Below, one piece after another: positions 40,179 through 46,921 of a stretch of 64,000 nucleotides of DNA. Position 1 is the stretch's first letter, and each line of letters opens with the position of its first letter. This stretch comes from Parcubacteria group bacterium (GTDB lineage: Bacteria; Patescibacteriota; Minisyncoccia; Moranbacterales; GCA-2747515). Location: contig JBAZXC010000001.1 of assembly GCA_041660065.1 (NCBI GenBank), positions 72,535-136,534 of the forward strand, in the 5' to 3' direction. The translations under genes were made by a program, and so were the position numbers. A model generated the notes under the pieces. The model worked only from the letters and a program-made list of their open reading frames with translations. It did not search any database and was not told the origin of the DNA.

Positions 40179-41585
40179 GTGGACTTTCTAACTACTATAA
40201 TTAATGTTATGGCGGAAGTAAAAACGGATATAGAAACATTTTCACGAATTAAGGTGATTGGTGTCGGTGGAGGTGGTGGAAACGCGATCACGCGCATGAT
40301 TGATGCAAATCTTAAGGGTGTGGAGTTTGTTGCGATCAATACCGATACACAAGCATTGCATCACTCTCGTGCGGAAGAAAAGGTGCATATCGGCAAGAGT
40401 CTTACAAAGGGATTGGGTGCCGGAATGAATCCTGAAGTTGGAAGACAGGCTGCAGAAGAAAGTCGAGAAGAAATTCAAAATGTGCTCAAGGGTGCAGATA
40501 TGGTTTTCGTGACGTGTGGCCTTGGTGGTGGCACAGGAACAGGTGCGGCACCAGTGGTTGCGGAAACGGCAAAAGAACTTGGTATTCTTACTGTTGCAGT
40601 TGTGACAAAACCATTTTCTTTCGAAGGGTCGCGCAGACGGGCGATTGCAGAAGAAGGTCTTGCTGCGTTGAAAAAAAGAGTTGATACGATCATCACAATT
40701 CAAAATGACAAGATTCTCTCGATCATCGATAAGAAGACAAGTCTCGTGAATTCTTTCCGTATTGTTGATGATGTTTTGCGACAAGGTGTGCAGGGGATCT
40801 CGGATATTATTTGCAATAGTAGTTCGGAAAGCGTTAATGTGGATTTTAAAGATGTGGAGACAACGATGTCAAATAGCGGAGATGCCCTTATGGGTATTGG
40901 GATTGCTACGGGAGAAAATCGTGCTTCTGAAGCAGCAAGAGCTGCTGTGAACAGCCCTTTGCTTGACCTCTCAATTGATGGAGCAAAGCGCGTGCTTTTC
41001 AACATCACAGGAAGTAGTGATATCACAATGTTTGAGGTTGAAGAAGCATCAAACGTTATCACAGAATCAGTGGATCCTGATGCGCGTATCATTTTTGGTA
41101 CGGTTATTGATGATAATTTACCAAAGGGTGAGATACAAATCACTGTCGTGGCTACAGGTTTTGACGATGATGATGGATTTCAAGAAGATGCGGAGATAAA
41201 AAAGAAAGAAGATGTGGCAAGTACTAGAACTCGTGGTTTTGGCGTTACTGGTCGTGCTGCTGTTGCGGCGGGTAATGAAGAATACGATGGGTCATATGAG
41301 ACAAAAGGGGACTATGATCAGGAGTCTCGCTATAGGGAGCCTGTACGAGCCTCATTCAATGGCACAAGACGAGGCGTTGGGAGCGTCAATAGTGATATGC
41401 GGTCCAAGATAACGAATGATATCGATATTGCGTCACAAAATTCCATGAAGCCAAAGATGATCATTGAGGAACCGATCAATATATCGCCACGTGCAATGAC
41501 GCCTTCTATAAAAAACATTATTGCAGAGGATGACACGGATTTTGACATACCAGCATTTATCAGAAAAAAAATGAAAAAAAATTAA
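40179..41585 (+). CDS. ftsZ: cell division protein FtsZ (with ~130-aa C-terminal extension)
   Basis: Tubulin signature [14 protein letters not shown]; [13 protein letters not shown]. Confidence 0.9.
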
Positions 41586-41597
41586 TGATCTTTTTTA

Positions 41598-41625
41598 CAC
41601 TCGCAATACCAGCGAGTGTTTTTTA
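41598..41625 (+). terminator. rho-independent terminator after ftsZ
   Basis: CACTCGC-AATACCA-GCGAGTG + T6. Confidence 0.6.
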
Positions 41626-41694
41626 TTTAGCTTTTTTTAACATGTTGACACAAGCATTAATCTTTTTGGAAGGTGAAAAAACTCTTAAAATGCA

Positions 41695-41727
41695 CAAAAC
41701 CTCCGGATCGCTGCCGGAGGTTTTGTG
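41695..41727. terminator. bidirectional terminator hairpin
   Basis: AAACCTCCGG-ATCGCTG-CCGGAGGTTTT, T/A-rich on both sides. Confidence 0.5.
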
Positions 41728-41776
41728 TTAAGAAGGTACGCATGATATTTTAGATATGCATTTTTTGTAAAATCGG

Positions 41777-42583
41777 CTATAAACCGGTCACATGTTGTGC
41801 ATATGTGTTGAGATGCTCAAGTTGTCTATCGTTGAGCGTTCGCGCTTTCATGATCGCATCGTTGATTGATGTATTGGAGAATGAAAGGGATGTTTCAGGA
41901 TGAATTCTCTGGGTCGTTTGTATGCGACGCAAGTAGTCTTCGATATAGATTTTGTGCGCAGGGGTGAGGTCGGTAATATTGTTTTGTGCAATATGTTGTG
42001 CGACAGCCTTGCGCGCAAGTGTCGTTACGCTATCTCCTGGTACTGCTGTAACCGTAATAACACCATCTTTGCTTTGGGATTCAATGACTTCTTGCACGAC
42101 ATCTTTTGCTGATTTCTTTTCTGGTTCTTGTGATGTCGCTGGTTCCTCAGTGCTTTGTTGCTCCGCGGCAATTTCATTTTTTGTTGTTTCTTGCGCATCA
42201 GGTATGACTGCGGCGGAATTTTCTTCCTGCACTGGCGTGTCCTTGCCTACGGACATGGCGGTTGTATCGCTGGTAGATTTTTGTTTTTCTTCATCCTTTA
42301 TTTCATCAATGATCTCATTGACCTCACTATTTTTTTCCGTACCTATGGCAACGTCTTTTAGCTGAGAGTCGTCAATTACAACATTGGAATGAGAATTTCT
42401 TTTTGAATAAGAATAAATTGCAAAAACCAATAGTATTACAATGCCGATACTTATGATAATGCGGAGATTGTCTTGAATCCAGTGGGACATATTGTTATCT
42501 TCAGTCATTGGATATAACACCATCCTTTCTAGTTTTAAATTGTTAAATAGCTTGCGTTGAAGCCGTCCGCCATAGGCGGACAA
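41777..42583 (-). CDS. membrane-anchored hypothetical protein with acidic/Ser-Thr-rich linker
   Basis: One TM helix near the N-terminus, low-complexity E/S/T-rich middle, conserved-looking C-terminal domain. Confidence 0.45.
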   Translation of the reverse strand: MSAYGGRLQRKLFNNLKLERMVLYPMTEDNNMSHWIQDNLRIIISIGIVILLVFAIYSYSKRNSHSNVVIDDSQLKDVAIGTEKNSEVNEIIDEIKDEEKQKSTSDTTAMSVGKDTPVQEENSAAVIPDAQETTKNEIAAEQQSTEEPATSQEPEKKSAKDVVQEVIESQSKDGVITVTAVPGDSVTTLARKAVAQHIAQNNITDLTPAHKIYIEDYLRRIQTTQRIHPETSLSFSNTSINDAIMKARTLNDRQLEHLNTYAQHVTGL

Positions 42584-42691: not shown

Positions 42692-43180
42692 ATGTCAATA
42701 TCTGCGATTTTGCTGTTTATTATGGTCGTTGTGTTTTTTATTGTGGGTCTTTTGGGTATTTTTCTTCCGGTTATTCCAAGTTTGCCTGTGGTGTGGTGTG
42801 GTATTTTTTTCTATGGTGTTTTGACGAATTTTTCTGAGGTGACGATCACGGTCGTAGTTATTACGGGTGCGCTTATGATCATTGGAACCGTATGTGATCT
42901 TTTTGTCGGTTCATTTGGTGCAAAAAAATATGGAGCGAGTTGGGCAGGAATCTGTGGTTCATTTTTTGGTGGCATGATTGGTGCGATTATTTTTAATATT
43001 GGTGGATTTATTATTGGAACTTTCGTTGGTGCATTTGTCGGTGAATTTATTTTTTATAAAAAGACGCATGCGGCATTGAAAGCAGGTGCGGGAACGATCG
43101 TGGGATTTCTCTTTGGCATTGCGATAAAAATATTTATTGCGTTCGTCATGTTCGGTATTTTTATTTTTGCCCTTTTCTAA
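42692..43180 (+). CDS. DUF456-like small membrane protein
   Basis: Four TM segments, Gly-rich helices. Confidence 0.5.
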   Translation: MSISAILLFIMVVVFFIVGLLGIFLPVIPSLPVVWCGIFFYGVLTNFSEVTITVVVITGALMIIGTVCDLFVGSFGAKKYGASWAGICGSFFGGMIGAIIFNIGGFIIGTFVGAFVGEFIFYKKTHAALKAGAGTIVGFLFGIAIKIFIAFVMFGIFIFALF

Positions 43181-43316
43181 TTTGCAAACTATTGATATAA
43201 TAAAATAAGTTTGATATAATATTAATATAAAACAAAATTATTTTTTAAATAAAAAATAATTTGTGTGTAAATAGAAAATAAAAATAGAAAGGAAGGTGAC
43301 ATTATTTTATGGCAGC

Positions 43317-43448
43317 AAAGAAAAAAGCAACAAAGAAAAAAGTTGCAAAGAAAGCAACAAAGAAAAAAGTTGTAAAGAAAGCAACAAAGAAAAAAGCAGT
43401 AAAGAAAGCAACAAAGAAAAAAGCAGCAAAGAAGAAATAGTGTTTTCC
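43317..43448 (+). CDS. Lys/Ala-rich histone H1-like small basic protein (43 aa) built from 24-nt tandem repeats
   Basis: ATG with AAGGAAGGTGA RBS; sequence MAAKKKATKKKVAKKATKKKVVKKATKKKAVKKATKKKAAKKK; followed by a terminator. Not in the ORF track (<60 aa). Confidence 0.5.
43321..43440. repeat. 24-nt tandem repeat (x5) encoding ATKKKxxKK units
   Basis: Repeated GCAACAAAGAAAAAAGTTGCAAAGAAA-like units. Confidence 0.7.
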
Positions 43449-43480
43449 TCAACTGTTTATATCTGAAATATTTAAACCAG

Positions 43481-43512
43481 AAACCCCGGCAATGTCCGGG
43501 TTTTTGGTTTTT
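43481..43512 (+). terminator. rho-independent terminator
   Basis: AAACCCCGG-CAATGT-CCGGGTTTTT. Confidence 0.45.
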
Positions 43513-43578
43513 GGTGAAATTGCACGAGATGAAGCAAGGATCTTAGGTGGACTATACGGTGCATTTATATGAGAAGCT

Positions 43579-44475
43579 CTATATGCGAGCAGAAAATAGG
43601 CGAGTCTTTCCAGTCAGATCGCAAAAAAACGTCATGTCTTTTTTTGTGCAGTTGTTTTTGTGCATAAACTCTGTGAGGACATCTTTTTGCTTAGGGTCGA
43701 TTTCATAAAAAAGTAAGAATGTCTTTTGGGGATTATTCTTTTTTAGAGATAGGATCTGTCTTGTAAGTTTTTTGTAATAGGCTAGTCCACCATCATCTGC
43801 CCATAAGGCAATTGACGGTTCGTACTGCAGTGCAAAAGATTCTTTTTTTGTCATGAGGGTAGATTTTTCTTCTATGTCTACATAGGGAAGATTTGCGATG
43901 ATGATTATTTGTGTATAATGTGATGCGGATAGCAAGTCACGCAAACAATTATTATGAAGAAGGTCAGACACGTAAAAGCGGATGCAATCATCAACTGAAT
44001 GACGTGTGGCATTTCTTTTTGCAACTGTGAGCGTTTTTGGCGATATATCGGTTGCGATCATATCCAGGTGCTTCTGTGAGGGCAATAATTCTTTGGCGAG
44101 TGTGATCGCGATTATGCCACTACCAGTTCCAATATCAATAATTGCGGTATCTGAGAAATTTGTGGAATGTAGTTGCTTGATCACATCAATGATGAGCTCT
44201 GTCTCCGGGCGAGGTATGAGCGTGTCAGGTGTTACAAAAAAAGAGCGGTTGTAAAACTCTTTTTCTCCGGTGATATAGGCAAGGGGAGTATGTTGGGCTC
44301 TTTTTTTTAGGGCGACAATGATTTCTTGTTGTACGTGCGGAGTAATGATGTCGGTATTGTGTGCAAGGACAAAATTGCGATCTTTCTTTAAAACAAAGGC
44401 AATAATCAATTCAATGTCAATGCGATCAAGTATTTCTTGCCAATCATGGATGATGTCTTCTATTGTTTGTAGCAT
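43579..44475 (-). CDS. prmC: HemK/PrmC-family protein-(glutamine-N5) methyltransferase
   Basis: SAM-binding DIGTGSG and NLPY(V) (NPPY-like) motif. Confidence 0.7.
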   Translation of the reverse strand: MLQTIEDIIHDWQEILDRIDIELIIAFVLKKDRNFVLAHNTDIITPHVQQEIIVALKKRAQHTPLAYITGEKEFYNRSFFVTPDTLIPRPETELIIDVIKQLHSTNFSDTAIIDIGTGSGIIAITLAKELLPSQKHLDMIATDISPKTLTVAKRNATRHSVDDCIRFYVSDLLHNNCLRDLLSASHYTQIIIIANLPYVDIEEKSTLMTKKESFALQYEPSIALWADDGGLAYYKKLTRQILSLKKNNPQKTFLLFYEIDPKQKDVLTEFMHKNNCTKKDMTFFCDLTGKTRLFSARI

Positions 44476-44613: not shown

Positions 44614-45540
44614 ATGATCAGATTATATACAGTATTGATGTTTGTAGCAATTCTTGGCATGGGTGCATATGCAGTTTTTGTTGTGTTGCAACCGCAATAT
44701 GTTTCACACACCTCTTTTATTATTACACAAAAAGATCATGCGATACAATTTACACAGATGGATCGTGTCGTAAATGATATTGTGTTTATTGCGCAGGAGT
44801 CCATATATGATAATTCTGTCGTCAAACAATATAATGCACGTGTGAACATTGCGTCTGCGGGCGACGCGAATGTCATTTTGATCGATGTATATGCAAAAGA
44901 TCCGCGTGTAATAAAAAACGTGGAAAAAAATGTTTTTGAGGAAATGACAAAAAGTGTTCGTATGTATTATACAGAGGATGCGGTGTCGATGCGTACACTG
45001 CACCATGATCGTATGCCACAACATACGAGATTTTCACGCTTCTTTACATATGGGATTATGGTGGTCATTGTTGCTGGCATAGTTGCCGGTGTGCGTGTAT
45101 TATATTACTATATTGATCAGACGCGTGATAAGCGTGTGCGTGTGACATCACTTGACGGTAAAAAAATTTTTGAGAAGTTCCATTTCAATCCTGTGATGGA
45201 AAAACATGAGGAAGATGCGCAACCTAAAGCGCAAAAGGATAAAGAAGAGGAAATTATCATAAGTGAAAGCGATCACAAAATAGACCAGCAATCAAAAGAA
45301 GAGACAAAAAAAGAACAATCACTTGCATATACAGAAGCGAAAGATGTGCGTACAATGAATGTGGCGACAATCCCGGGGGGATTAGCTGCAACTCCGGGCA
45401 ACCTTCCGGTAGTTGATGTTGGTGCGTTAGGTTTTGTGACGACACAATCGCGCATAAATGAAAGCGCAGTTGAAACAAATGAACCGACAGAAGATGAATT
45501 GAAGGCACGACTCAATGATTTATTGCGAGGTAAATTATAA
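44614..45540 (+). CDS. bitopic membrane protein, Wzz-like chain-length-determinant topology (hypothetical)
   Basis: TM at the N-terminus and a second TM at ~aa 150-175 flanking a soluble domain; C-terminal low-complexity tail. Confidence 0.35.
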   Translation: MIRLYTVLMFVAILGMGAYAVFVVLQPQYVSHTSFIITQKDHAIQFTQMDRVVNDIVFIAQESIYDNSVVKQYNARVNIASAGDANVILIDVYAKDPRVIKNVEKNVFEEMTKSVRMYYTEDAVSMRTLHHDRMPQHTRFSRFFTYGIMVVIVAGIVAGVRVLYYYIDQTRDKRVRVTSLDGKKIFEKFHFNPVMEKHEEDAQPKAQKDKEEEIIISESDHKIDQQSKEETKKEQSLAYTEAKDVRTMNVATIPGGLAATPGNLPVVDVGALGFVTTQSRINESAVETNEPTEDELKARLNDLLRGKL

Positions 45541-45544
45541 AAAT

Positions 45545-46921
45545 ATGATGCAAAAAAAATTAGTGAAAAATGTGATATTTTTTGTACTTGTGGCTGTGAT
45601 CATTGCGATGATCATCTTGTTTTTTTCTCTAAAAAATAATCCACAAAAATTGGTTAACATTGCATATACAACATCAAAAATTTTACCACTTGGAGATCGA
45701 TATAATACAGCTGTAGCATTGGCACACTATATTTTACAAAACGACGATCAAGAACGAACGTTCTTGATTCTTTTGCAAAATAATATGGAATTGCGTCCCG
45801 GTGGCGGATATATCGGCTCATTTGCCATTGTGACGGTTAAAAATGGCGCTGTGGTCAAGAGTGCGGTGCATGATACGGCAAATTTTGACGGGAGGATCCC
45901 TGATGCTCTGGAGCCGCCATATCCGATGAAAGAAACGATGCATATTCCATCATGGAAACTGCGCGATAGTAATTGGATGCCTGATTTTCCAACAAATGCA
46001 CGTGTTGCAGAAAATTTTTATACATTGGGCGGCGGTACGGAAAAATTTGATGGTGTGATTGCTGTCAATGCGACAATTCTTGACATGATTCTCGATGTTA
46101 CCGGTCCGATTACGCTTGATGATTATCCGCATACGTTTAAAAGTGGCGATGCAATCATGACGTTGGAATATCAAGTTGAGAAAGGATATAAGGAGCAAGA
46201 TATTGAAAAAGGTGATCGCAAGGTTATCATGGATGCATTGATGAAAGAAATTGTGCGTCGTGTTGCGGATGTCTCTGTACAAGAAAAGATTGGTTTGGTA
46301 AATATGTTCGTCCAATCGTTTGATAATAAAGACATACAAGTGTATCTCGATGATGAAAAAATGGCGCAGATGATCAGCGCAGTCAATTGGCAGGGATCTG
46401 TTGACGCAACATGGGATAAAGATTATTTGATGGTTGTTGATGCGAATCTGGCATCATATAAAACGGATCATGTTGTAAAGCGCAGTGTGGATTATGATAT
46501 TGATCTTTCTGGTACGATTCCCCAAGCAGTGCTCACTGTTCATTATGAAAATACTGCAACACAAAAGGATTGGAAGACATACGATTATCAAACATATCTC
46601 AGGATATACACGCCAGAAGATACATGGTTTACAGAAGTACCACAATGCGTATTACCACCGCAATATGGATCAAAATATGGCAAACGATATGTAGGTTGTC
46701 TCGTGCAGGTGCCACTTGGGACAGAAAAAGATGTGGTTGTGCGATATAATTTGCCGATTGATATGAAGAATAAATATCCATATGATCTTAAAATTCAAAA
46801 ACAATCCGGCGTACATGATGTGCCGGTTGCTGTCCACGTACATAATCCTGGATCAACGGTAGCAGATGAATATTCGTTTGTGATGGACATGGATACTACA
46901 CTGTCTGAATTGAAGAAATAA
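45545..46921 (+). CDS. DUF4012 domain protein
   Basis: N-terminal TM anchor and RPGGGYIGSF motif characteristic of DUF4012; start moved to the in-frame ATG after the upstream stop. Confidence 0.6.
   Translation: MMQKKLVKNVIFFVLVAVIIAMIILFFSLKNNPQKLVNIAYTTSKILPLGDRYNTAVALAHYILQNDDQERTFLILLQNNMELRPGGGYIGSFAIVTVKNGAVVKSAVHDTANFDGRIPDALEPPYPMKETMHIPSWKLRDSNWMPDFPTNARVAENFYTLGGGTEKFDGVIAVNATILDMILDVTGPITLDDYPHTFKSGDAIMTLEYQVEKGYKEQDIEKGDRKVIMDALMKEIVRRVADVSVQEKIGLVNMFVQSFDNKDIQVYLDDEKMAQMISAVNWQGSVDATWDKDYLMVVDANLASYKTDHVVKRSVDYDIDLSGTIPQAVLTVHYENTATQKDWKTYDYQTYLRIYTPEDTWFTEVPQCVLPPQYGSKYGKRYVGCLVQVPLGTEKDVVVRYNLPIDMKNKYPYDLKIQKQSGVHDVPVAVHVHNPGSTVADEYSFVMDMDTTLSELKK

Follow-up and report, generated by a model that had tools for sequence, protein, structure and literature searches.

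The locus considered here is a short, lysine-coding tandem repeat that lies between a gene for a DUF456 membrane protein and prmC in a 64,000-nucleotide stretch of contig JBAZXC010000001.1 (the window), and it raises the question of whether such a repeat is a gene at all and, if it is, what a protein that is more than half lysine might do in the cell. The window is part of an uncultured candidate phyla radiation (CPR; Patescibacteria) genome that is Parcubacteria/Moranbacteria-like; its PrmC is 100% identical to a protein recorded for a Parcubacteria group bacterium, and the next relatives of its PrmC include proteins labelled Moranbacteria or Moraniibacteriota. Comparison of the locus with its relatives shows that the gene is real, conserved and selected as a coding sequence, and that it is equipped with strong and conserved expression signals. 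A conserved frame, constraint at the protein level, an ATG start, a ribosome-binding site (RBS), a promoter and a terminator, the general marks of a gene, were all found. The locus is what the original prediction took it to be, a genuine small gene that was overlooked through a length cut-off and that has its own promoter, RBS and terminator. The gene, its signals and a spurious open reading frame (ORF) opposite to it are arranged as follows, lengths being in nucleotides (nt) or amino acids (aa):

43192-43220, plus strand: sigma-70-type promoter, with -35 TTGATA at 43192-43197, a 17-nt spacer and a TG-extended -10 TATAAT at 43215-43220
43235-43262, plus strand: AT-only inverted repeat, a hairpin of the 5' untranslated region, AAATTATTTTTT-AAAT-AAAAAATAATTT, with a perfect 12-bp stem and a 4-nt loop
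43285-43299, plus strand: extended Shine-Dalgarno (SD)-like motif TAGAAAGGAAGGTGA, which ends 9 nt before the ATG
43309-43440, plus strand: coding sequence of the polybasic micro-protein, 43 codons, ATG start, TAG stop at 43438-43440
43324-43433, plus strand: intragenic tandem repeat, period 27 nt or 9 codons (ATKKKxxKK), 4.1 copies
43485-43514, plus strand: intrinsic terminator, CCCGG-CAATGT-CCGGG followed by TTTTTGGTTTTTGG
43222-43452, minus strand: spurious antisense ORF of 76 aa (MRKTLFLLCCFF...), a compositional mirror of the Lys repeat

Direct reading of the DNA confirms an ATG-initiated ORF of 43 codons that encodes MAAKKKATKKKVAKKATKKKVVKKATKKKAVKKATKKKAAKKK, in which 24 of 43 residues are Lys and none is acidic or aromatic, giving a net charge of about +24. 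Among the ORFs of 25 aa or more in the six frames of the 64-kb window, it alone reaches 30% Lys. Three details of the original prediction, position, period and copy number, had to be amended, its peptide and all its signals being right. The span given there, 43317-43448, is displaced by +8 nt from the actual 43309-43440 (stop included), and the five 24-nt units counted there are 4.1 copies with a period of 27 nt, which is also the length implied by the predicted unit itself, since ATKKKxxKK has nine residues. Tandem Repeats Finder scores 43324-43433 at 178 with 95% matches, far beyond chance, and the repeat unit of the peptide splits 5+4 (ATKKK+VAKK) with its basic residues 3+2. As far as can be checked, the gene is unannotated: there is no recorded gene with this product, the micro-ORF was left uncalled in the independent Logan assembly L001, whose DNA at the locus is identical to that of the window, and exact-sequence look-ups with the window peptide and five orthologs returned no record.

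Relatives were obtained through synteny because direct protein searches fail on low-complexity sequence. PrmC homologs and their contigs provided six relatives which, together with the window, give seven genes, and in each locus that has retained the gene order, the opposite strand carries a Lys/Arg-rich ORF downstream of prmC. The six relatives are:

L005: PrmC identity 84%, product of 47 aa, MAAKKKAAKKATKKKVAKKATKKKVAKKATKKKVVKKATKKKAAKKK
L012: PrmC identity 44%, product of 24 aa, MAAKKATKKKVAKKVVKKVAKKKK, uncalled there
L009: PrmC identity 47%, product of 78 aa
L010: PrmC identity 47%, product of 71 aa as called
L013: PrmC identity 44%, product of 89 aa, in a Moraniibacteriota metagenome-assembled genome
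L014: PrmC identity 48%, product of 99 aa

Three distant CPR genomes, the only ones reached by a PrmC scan of genome contigs (35-38% identity), have no Lys-rich ORF near prmC. A larger set came from a metagenome scan in which the 15-nt SD followed by ATGGC served as the key, and which gave at least 120 loci. The motif precedes a polybasic ORF in 39 of the matches listed (for example MAKKKKVAKKKKAAKKKKKK and MAAKKKAVKKVAKKKVAKKAVKKVAKKKVAKKAVKKVAKKKVTAKKKKK), and genomic context was analysed for 38 of these 39, including one that is cut by a contig end. In 35 of the 38 a prmC homolog converges on the ORF, or a homolog of the membrane-protein gene found at 41777-42583 of the window lies beside it, or both, and these 35 are positional orthologs; the membrane-protein homolog adjoins the polylysine gene and is divergently transcribed in 27 of the 38. 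Family members range from 17 to 99 aa, many being 17-25 aa, and at their ends the only recurrent elements are an initial MA(A)KKK and a terminal K/R run. The suggestion that repeat number could vary is borne out by this range and by a 12-nt in-frame indel between the window and its closest relative, L005, which has 4.6 copies of the 27-nt unit. L006 and L007, two Logan assemblies of this 84% relative with a contig end at 7104, break inside the 27-nt repeat (compare L005 7034-7177), which fits either a failure of short-read assembly or heterogeneity of repeat number in the population.

The remaining three metagenome loci (L051, L116 and L121) are without a homolog of either neighbour, the contig of L051 being too short to provide context. 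They carry Lys-rich micro-ORFs of 19-27 aa with the same SD (L116 1766-1831, minus strand; L121 3854-3937, plus strand; L051 1052-1111, plus strand) behind a different upstream region, TGTGGATAACT…TTGAC(A/G)-17-TATAAT and then an AT palindrome, and those of L116 and L121 are convergent with a gene for a 413-414-aa protein that matches PHP_C weakly. These loci represent either a second locus type for the family or more than one origin.

Evidence that selection acts on the protein is provided by the reading frames of the relatives. The Lys frame is the only stop-free sense frame in all seven syntenic genes, the +2 frame being interrupted by stops in 7/7 and the +3 frame containing 2-12 stops in five of the seven, L012, L009, L013 and L014 among them. 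In distant orthologs many Lys codons (AAA/AAG) are replaced by Arg codons (CGN), an exchange that needs two or three substitutions, so that charge is what is preserved and not DNA sequence. Repeat periods in the distant orthologs (87, 57, 30, 15 and 12 nt) are, as is the 27-nt period of the window, all multiples of three. Codon choice also bears the mark of selection: taken over 39 unique ORFs of the family, the longest run of A measures 5-8 nt and averages 6.67 nt, compared with a mean of 9.7 nt when AAA and AAG were shuffled among the Lys positions, and 0 of 500 shuffles were as low as observed. AAG codons fall where they interrupt poly(A), which would be expected if it matters that the frame is transcribed and translated accurately. 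Moreover, identity between the window and L005 is 99.2% for the promoter and leader and 97.0% for the ORF, above the values for the coding sequences of the neighbouring DUF456 gene (87.5%), prmC (87.8%) and ftsZ (90.8%). Indels that disrupt the frame in relatives, which the original prediction had named as a refutation, were sought: 6/7 of the syntenic genes keep the frame, as do all the metagenome copies that are complete, and it is shifted in L010.

The original prediction also called the 76-aa minus-strand ORF almost certainly spurious, and rightly so, as it is open by composition only and the conserved expression signals are all on the plus strand. Antisense frames are open here because the Lys, Arg, Ala, Val and Thr codons are without TTA, CTA and TCA, and the other antisense ORFs at the locus, likewise open through composition alone, were ruled out. 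So was an ORF in the +3 frame (43296-43466, MTLFYGSKEKSNKEKS...), by the stops in L012, L009, L013 and L014.

The promoter of the window gene has 11/12 matches to the sigma-70 consensus with the TG present, and predicts a transcription start at about 43227. It is formed by two copies of TTGATATAAT, the motif to which attention had been drawn in the AT-rich region upstream, and a TTGAttTt-17-TATAAT box occupies the equivalent position in the syntenic orthologs L005, L012, L010, L013 and L014. The proposed RBS, AAGGAAGGTGA, was found inside the longer motif TAGAAAGGAAGGTGA at 43285-43299, of which there is one exact copy in the window where 0.09 is expected. Among the at least 120 metagenome loci, TAGAAAGGAAGGTGA followed by ATGGC also precedes the genes for HU (9 loci, PF00216), bS21 and uL10 and, in 20 of the matches listed, that for a CxxC zinc-ribbon protein of 70-85 aa whose sequence begins MAYQ(Q)D.... 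The motif thus marks genes whose products are normally abundant, and because the identical 15-nt SD precedes the HU, bS21 and uL10 genes, high expression of the polylysine gene is probable as well; the genes that carry it suggest that TAGAAAGGAAGGTGA serves the whole lineage as a 'super-SD' for small, abundant proteins that bind nucleic acid. It resembles TAGAAAGGAGGTGA, the full complement of a Bacillus-type 16S 3' end, plus one extra A, and the 16S 3' end of this lineage may be its exact complement (candidate reading UCACCUUCCUUUCUA), no 16S gene occurring in the window or the loci. After the ORF, the predicted terminator hairpin is present at 43485-43514 as a GC hairpin with a T-run, which scores on the minus strand too and separates the micro-gene from the convergent prmC. 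Its loop, CAATG(A/T), is kept in relatives while the stems covary, these being CCGCGG/CCGCGG in L005, CACGG/CTGTG in L009, CACAG/CTGTG in L010, CCCCGG/CCGGGG in L013 and CTCTAG/CTAGGG in L014.

Between promoter and ORF lies an A/T-rich leader of about 80 nt, in which the inverted repeat begins about 8 nt past the predicted transcription start. In most family members the -10 box is followed by an AT-only hairpin or palindrome whose symmetry is preserved and whose sequence differs, the variants including a G-U pair in L012, AAAAATTTTT arms in L013 and stems of 14-16 bp in L073 and L074. In 19 of 40 non-redundant leaders the stem length was matched by at most 5 of 100 shuffles, each sequence being shuffled by itself since an alignment selected by stem would make a formal count of covariation circular. 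The window hairpin is thermodynamically weak as RNA (-7.6 kcal/mol, z -0.85), and the element may be a 5' stabiliser of the mRNA or an operator. A further element, an invariant GGTCGA within AAAACAAAA-GGTCGA-AAACAAAA, is found in 29 of the 40 non-redundant leaders and is absent from those of the window and its closest relatives, and some of the leaders, which lie at about 45-125 nt upstream of the Lys-rich ORFs (L017-L123), add a second, GC-containing hairpin before the SD. Rfam contains no family that matches in the window, with chance-level matches only around the locus and in the L041 leader.

What kind of protein, then, is so consistently maintained? Family composition is 55.4% K, 18.9% A, 10.7% V, 6.4% T and 3.8% R, with no D or E and no aromatic residues, the ORFs being about 59% K+R and built almost wholly of (A/V/T)(A/V/T)KKK and xxKK units. 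A single-sequence AlphaFold model of the window peptide is one helix (residues 2-42, predicted local distance difference test score 93) without tertiary structure, and such a model indicates only helical propensity. The non-basic residues of the nine-residue unit are spread around the predicted helix, leaving no amphipathic face, and neither a signal peptide nor a hydrophobic segment is present in the window peptide. Trypsin would cut it into fragments of 1-4 residues. Searches with the peptide gave no match in Pfam at E<=1, just a match to a ValRS tail in NCBIfam (E 0.55), only non-significant matches among Protein Data Bank (PDB) sequences (E 0.47 and 0.61, the latter to S8e) and, owing to low complexity, no homolog in a word-indexed search of 5.8 billion proteins. 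Three matches were returned by phmmer against 1.84 billion representatives, none of them a small ortholog, and the one with an acidic EEATKEEVV repeat is an artefact. Another is a 268-aa protein (P0122; L135 5001-5807) encoded in a different context, beside glutaredoxin and Tad-domain genes; from a likely start of MAKKK it runs through about 11 copies of ATKKKVAKK into a C-terminal half that is strongly acidic. Either it is a relative, fused and self-neutralising, or its repeat is a copy that arose by convergence. Literature searches turned up no account of micro-proteins of this sort from CPR or Patescibacteria.

The kind of protein that comes closest is chlamydial Hc2 (HctB), with the Hc2-like proteins of Bordetella (BpH1), Burkholderia and others. 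These consist of Lys/Arg plus Ala/Val/Thr/Pro pentamers with evenly spaced charge, vary in repeat number and bind both DNA and RNA, and their consecutive pentamers have two basic residues and three of Ala, Val, Thr or Pro with no acidic residue in the repeats (PMC2848022). Hc2 and the micro-protein family have in common short-period repeats drawn from the same residues, positive charge spread along them, freedom from acidic residues, and polymorphism of repeat number and length between strains and species. However, Hc2 has 165-237 aa with conserved non-repeat N- and C-terminal ends, whereas the micro-proteins have 17-99 aa and are all repeat; their charge is denser, with three basic residues in five or two in four (about 59%) where Hc2 has two per pentamer (40%); and they are from a different lineage, with a different conserved synteny and leader. 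HC2 (PF07382, cutoff 40 bits) is the sole Pfam model that touches the long orthologs, and it does so weakly: those of 78, 89 and 99 aa score 7.0-8.6 bits (E 2.4-7.8), and there is no match for the window protein or for the 52- and 66-aa orthologs.

Other basic proteins are more distant in kind. 'Histone-H1-like', as the product had been called, fits in composition and fails in architecture, there being no H1 globular domain, no Pfam match to the winged helix of linker histone H1/H5 (PF00538), nothing but a single predicted helix, and a score far below cutoff for HC2. The C-terminal domain of H1 and the tails of HU, HupB/MDP1, Ku and TopA are, like the micro-protein, rich in Lys and Ala and free of acidic residues, but they are attached to folded DNA-binding domains, while the micro-protein is tail-like throughout and has almost no Pro. 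Such tails are disordered when free, are expected to be helical on nucleic acid, and bind by charge. AlgP (AlgR3) and PhaF of Pseudomonas, also called histone-H1-like, have Lys-rich repeats and bind DNA, polyphosphate granules or RNA (PMC9239181, PMC12818456). The micro-protein is unlike them, as their KPAA/AAKP repeats have abundant Pro and about 25% Lys and extend over hundreds of residues, with extra domains in PhaF; the supposed resemblance to AlgP-like KPAA repeats fails, since Pro makes up 0.8% of family residues and is absent from the window peptide. Protamines and the ribosomal peptides eL41, bTHX, bS22 and bL37 are similar to the micro-protein in having about 20-50 aa, about 60% basic residues and no fold, and in binding nucleic acid, but they are Arg-based, not built of repeats, and fixed in length and conserved in sequence, and no Pfam, NCBIfam or significant PDB-sequence match links the family to bTHX, bS22, bL37 or eL41. 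We do not place the micro-protein family in any of these known families; at most it works like them.

We favour, with confidence only a little above even, the reading that the micro-protein is a domain-less polycation that would bind, neutralise and compact nucleic acid by non-specific electrostatic interaction. A polyelectrolyte role of this kind is suggested because charge density, acid-free composition and strong expression are conserved while sequence and length are not. The polycation would bind nucleoid DNA, and possibly RNA, neutralising its charge, and the peptide would probably turn helical on binding, as do the H1 C-terminal tail, Hc2 and protamines. From composition and signals we infer high abundance, nucleic-acid binding and a role in compaction or as a counter-ion. 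Several points weigh against this reading or the gene evidence beneath it. L010 (6946-7161, minus strand) carries a 1-nt frameshift in an A-rich stretch near its 3' end. The SD was itself the key of the metagenome search, which biases that set towards strongly signalled copies. The family has no significant sequence link to any characterised nucleoid protein in Pfam HC2, NCBIfam or PDB. Any polycation binds DNA in vitro, which makes the Hc2 analogy weak support for a nucleoid role in vivo, the same properties fit ribosome or RNA association, and these genomes already encode HU. As to L010, its called product ends in the unrelated …QHANLQNVRQYVEKNNAVLIQNF and the conserved C-terminus ...ARKPAKRKTIRRKK* runs on in the +3 frame, and the shift comes either from misassembly within an A-run or from a recent (slippage) mutation.

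Of the alternatives, the one that deserves most attention, although it is unlikely, is that of an eL41-like micro-protein associated with the ribosome or rRNA. Extremely basic peptides such as eL41, bTHX, bS22 and bL37 fill rRNA grooves, eL41 has the size and charge of the 17-25-aa orthologs that are so frequent in the family, and the ribosomes of CPR bacteria have undergone the loss of some proteins and rRNA segments. The exact 15-nt SD is common to the bS21 and uL10 genes, the gene adjoins that for the translation-termination factor PrmC, and uS19 bears an Ala/Lys-rich C-terminal extension in Parcubacteria specifically (PMC9297842). The SD cannot tell the two readings apart, since the gene for the nucleoid protein HU has it too, and there is no match to any ribosomal family, the PDB matches being non-significant. 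The main objection to a ribosomal component is the six-fold length range (17-99 aa) of a low-complexity, repeat-driven product, given that known ribosomal micro-proteins have a fixed length and a conserved sequence. Another idea is that the product matters little and the gene is a translational or regulatory device, either a sensor of Lys-tRNA or stalling or a means by which convergent transcription modulates prmC. Poly-Lys tracts perturb elongation, the leader is long, conserved and structured (the AT hairpin, and GGTCGA in 29/40), and the convergent arrangement with prmC is conserved. A device of this kind is nevertheless improbable, because there is no co-directional downstream gene and, in those relatives that were inspected, a terminator whose stems covary comes after the ORF, because the placement of AAG breaks slippery A-runs, the opposite of what stalling or slippage needs, and because the Lys-to-Arg exchanges keep charge and neither codons nor tRNA identity.

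Just as improbable is that the polycation serves another polyanion, such as polyphosphate granules or anionic polymers of the envelope, or leaves the cell as a cationic or cell-penetrating effector directed at the host of what is presumed to be an episymbiont. Oligolysines are cell-penetrating. The Lys-rich repeat protein AlgP localises to polyphosphate granules (PMC9239181). For the micro-protein composition is the one point in favour of such a role, and against it are the missing signal peptide, hydrophobic segment and amphipathic face, the fact that no secretion or ppk gene is adjacent to the micro-gene, and a Pro content of 0.8%, which is not that of KPAA repeats. Least probable of all is that the locus is no gene but an A-rich tandem DNA repeat open in several frames by chance. 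In the window the locus is open in five of its six frames, the ORF is uncalled in the window genome and in L001, and HMMER finds no homologs, a failure due to low complexity. Yet in distant orthologs the other sense frames gain 2-12 stops and the Lys/Arg frame stays open, and the Lys-to-Arg exchanges, the 3n periods and the non-random placement of AAG, with conserved ATG, SD, promoter and terminator and a conservation above that of the neighbouring genes, do not fit a chance repeat.

If the micro-protein is the polycation proposed above, a bolder form of that reading can be entertained, though only as a doubtful one: that the major intracellular polycation of an ultra-small CPR clade is a ribosomally made oligolysine of 17-99 aa, a substitute for protamines or polyamines that is dosed by its leader. 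Being too short for gene callers, of low complexity and destroyed by trypsin, it would have escaped annotation, homology search and metaproteomics alike. In these cells, whose metabolism is minimal, the oligolysine would neutralise and compact DNA and RNA; a conserved, structured leader of its own, made up of the 5' AT hairpin, the GGTCGA box and the 15-nt SD, would set its dosage, and the peptide might feed back on that AT-rich leader. What would be new in the family is a domain-less, ultra-short, Lys-based polycation with a conserved locus and leader in CPR, for which a function like that of H1, Hc2 or protamines is plausible by analogy.

The cell biology of Parcubacteria-type CPR bacteria is almost unknown and their DNA is very tightly packed, and if the micro-protein is abundant, these organisms would have in it a counter-ion of the nucleoid or of RNA that has not been listed before. 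The case also illustrates that a conserved gene can slip through three filters, an ORF length cut-off, low-complexity masking and trypsin-based proteomics. A recognisable locus beside prmC, together with a synthetic 20-43-mer, is a concrete and cheap object for tests, and the conserved leader with the 15-nt SD also seen at the HU, bS21 and uL10 genes offers a handle for predicting highly expressed genes in uncultured lineages. There is a small but real consequence for annotation, namely that gene calls ought to include the micro-ORF on the plus strand and to drop the 76-aa ORF on the minus strand.

The neighbourhood of the gene in the window is as follows, ftsA lying upstream of ftsZ:

40179-41585, plus strand: ftsZ
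41777-42583, minus strand: conserved membrane protein with an acidic linker, function unassigned, no Pfam family, likely true start 42508
42692-43180, plus strand: DUF456 membrane-protein gene, directly upstream of the micro-gene and found only in closer relatives
43579-44475, minus strand: prmC (release-factor glutamine methyltransferase), the convergent neighbour and synteny anchor of the family
44614-45540, plus strand: gene for a 308-aa protein, unassigned
45515-46921, plus strand: DUF4012 gene

The protein encoded at 41777-42583 has one transmembrane segment, a very acidic linker rich in Glu, Asp, Ser and Thr, and a conserved C-terminal domain. A near-copy of TAGAAAGGAAGGTGA, TAGAAAGGATGGTGT, at 42517-42531 precedes the likely start at 42508, which implies that the TTG start listed at 42583 lies too far upstream. 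Between ftsZ and this gene, a hydrophobic ORF of 48 aa (41585-41731, plus strand) that opens at the stop codon of ftsZ is among the called genes of L001, and at the corresponding place in L014, between ftsZ and the divergent neighbour, a gene of 55 aa is called.

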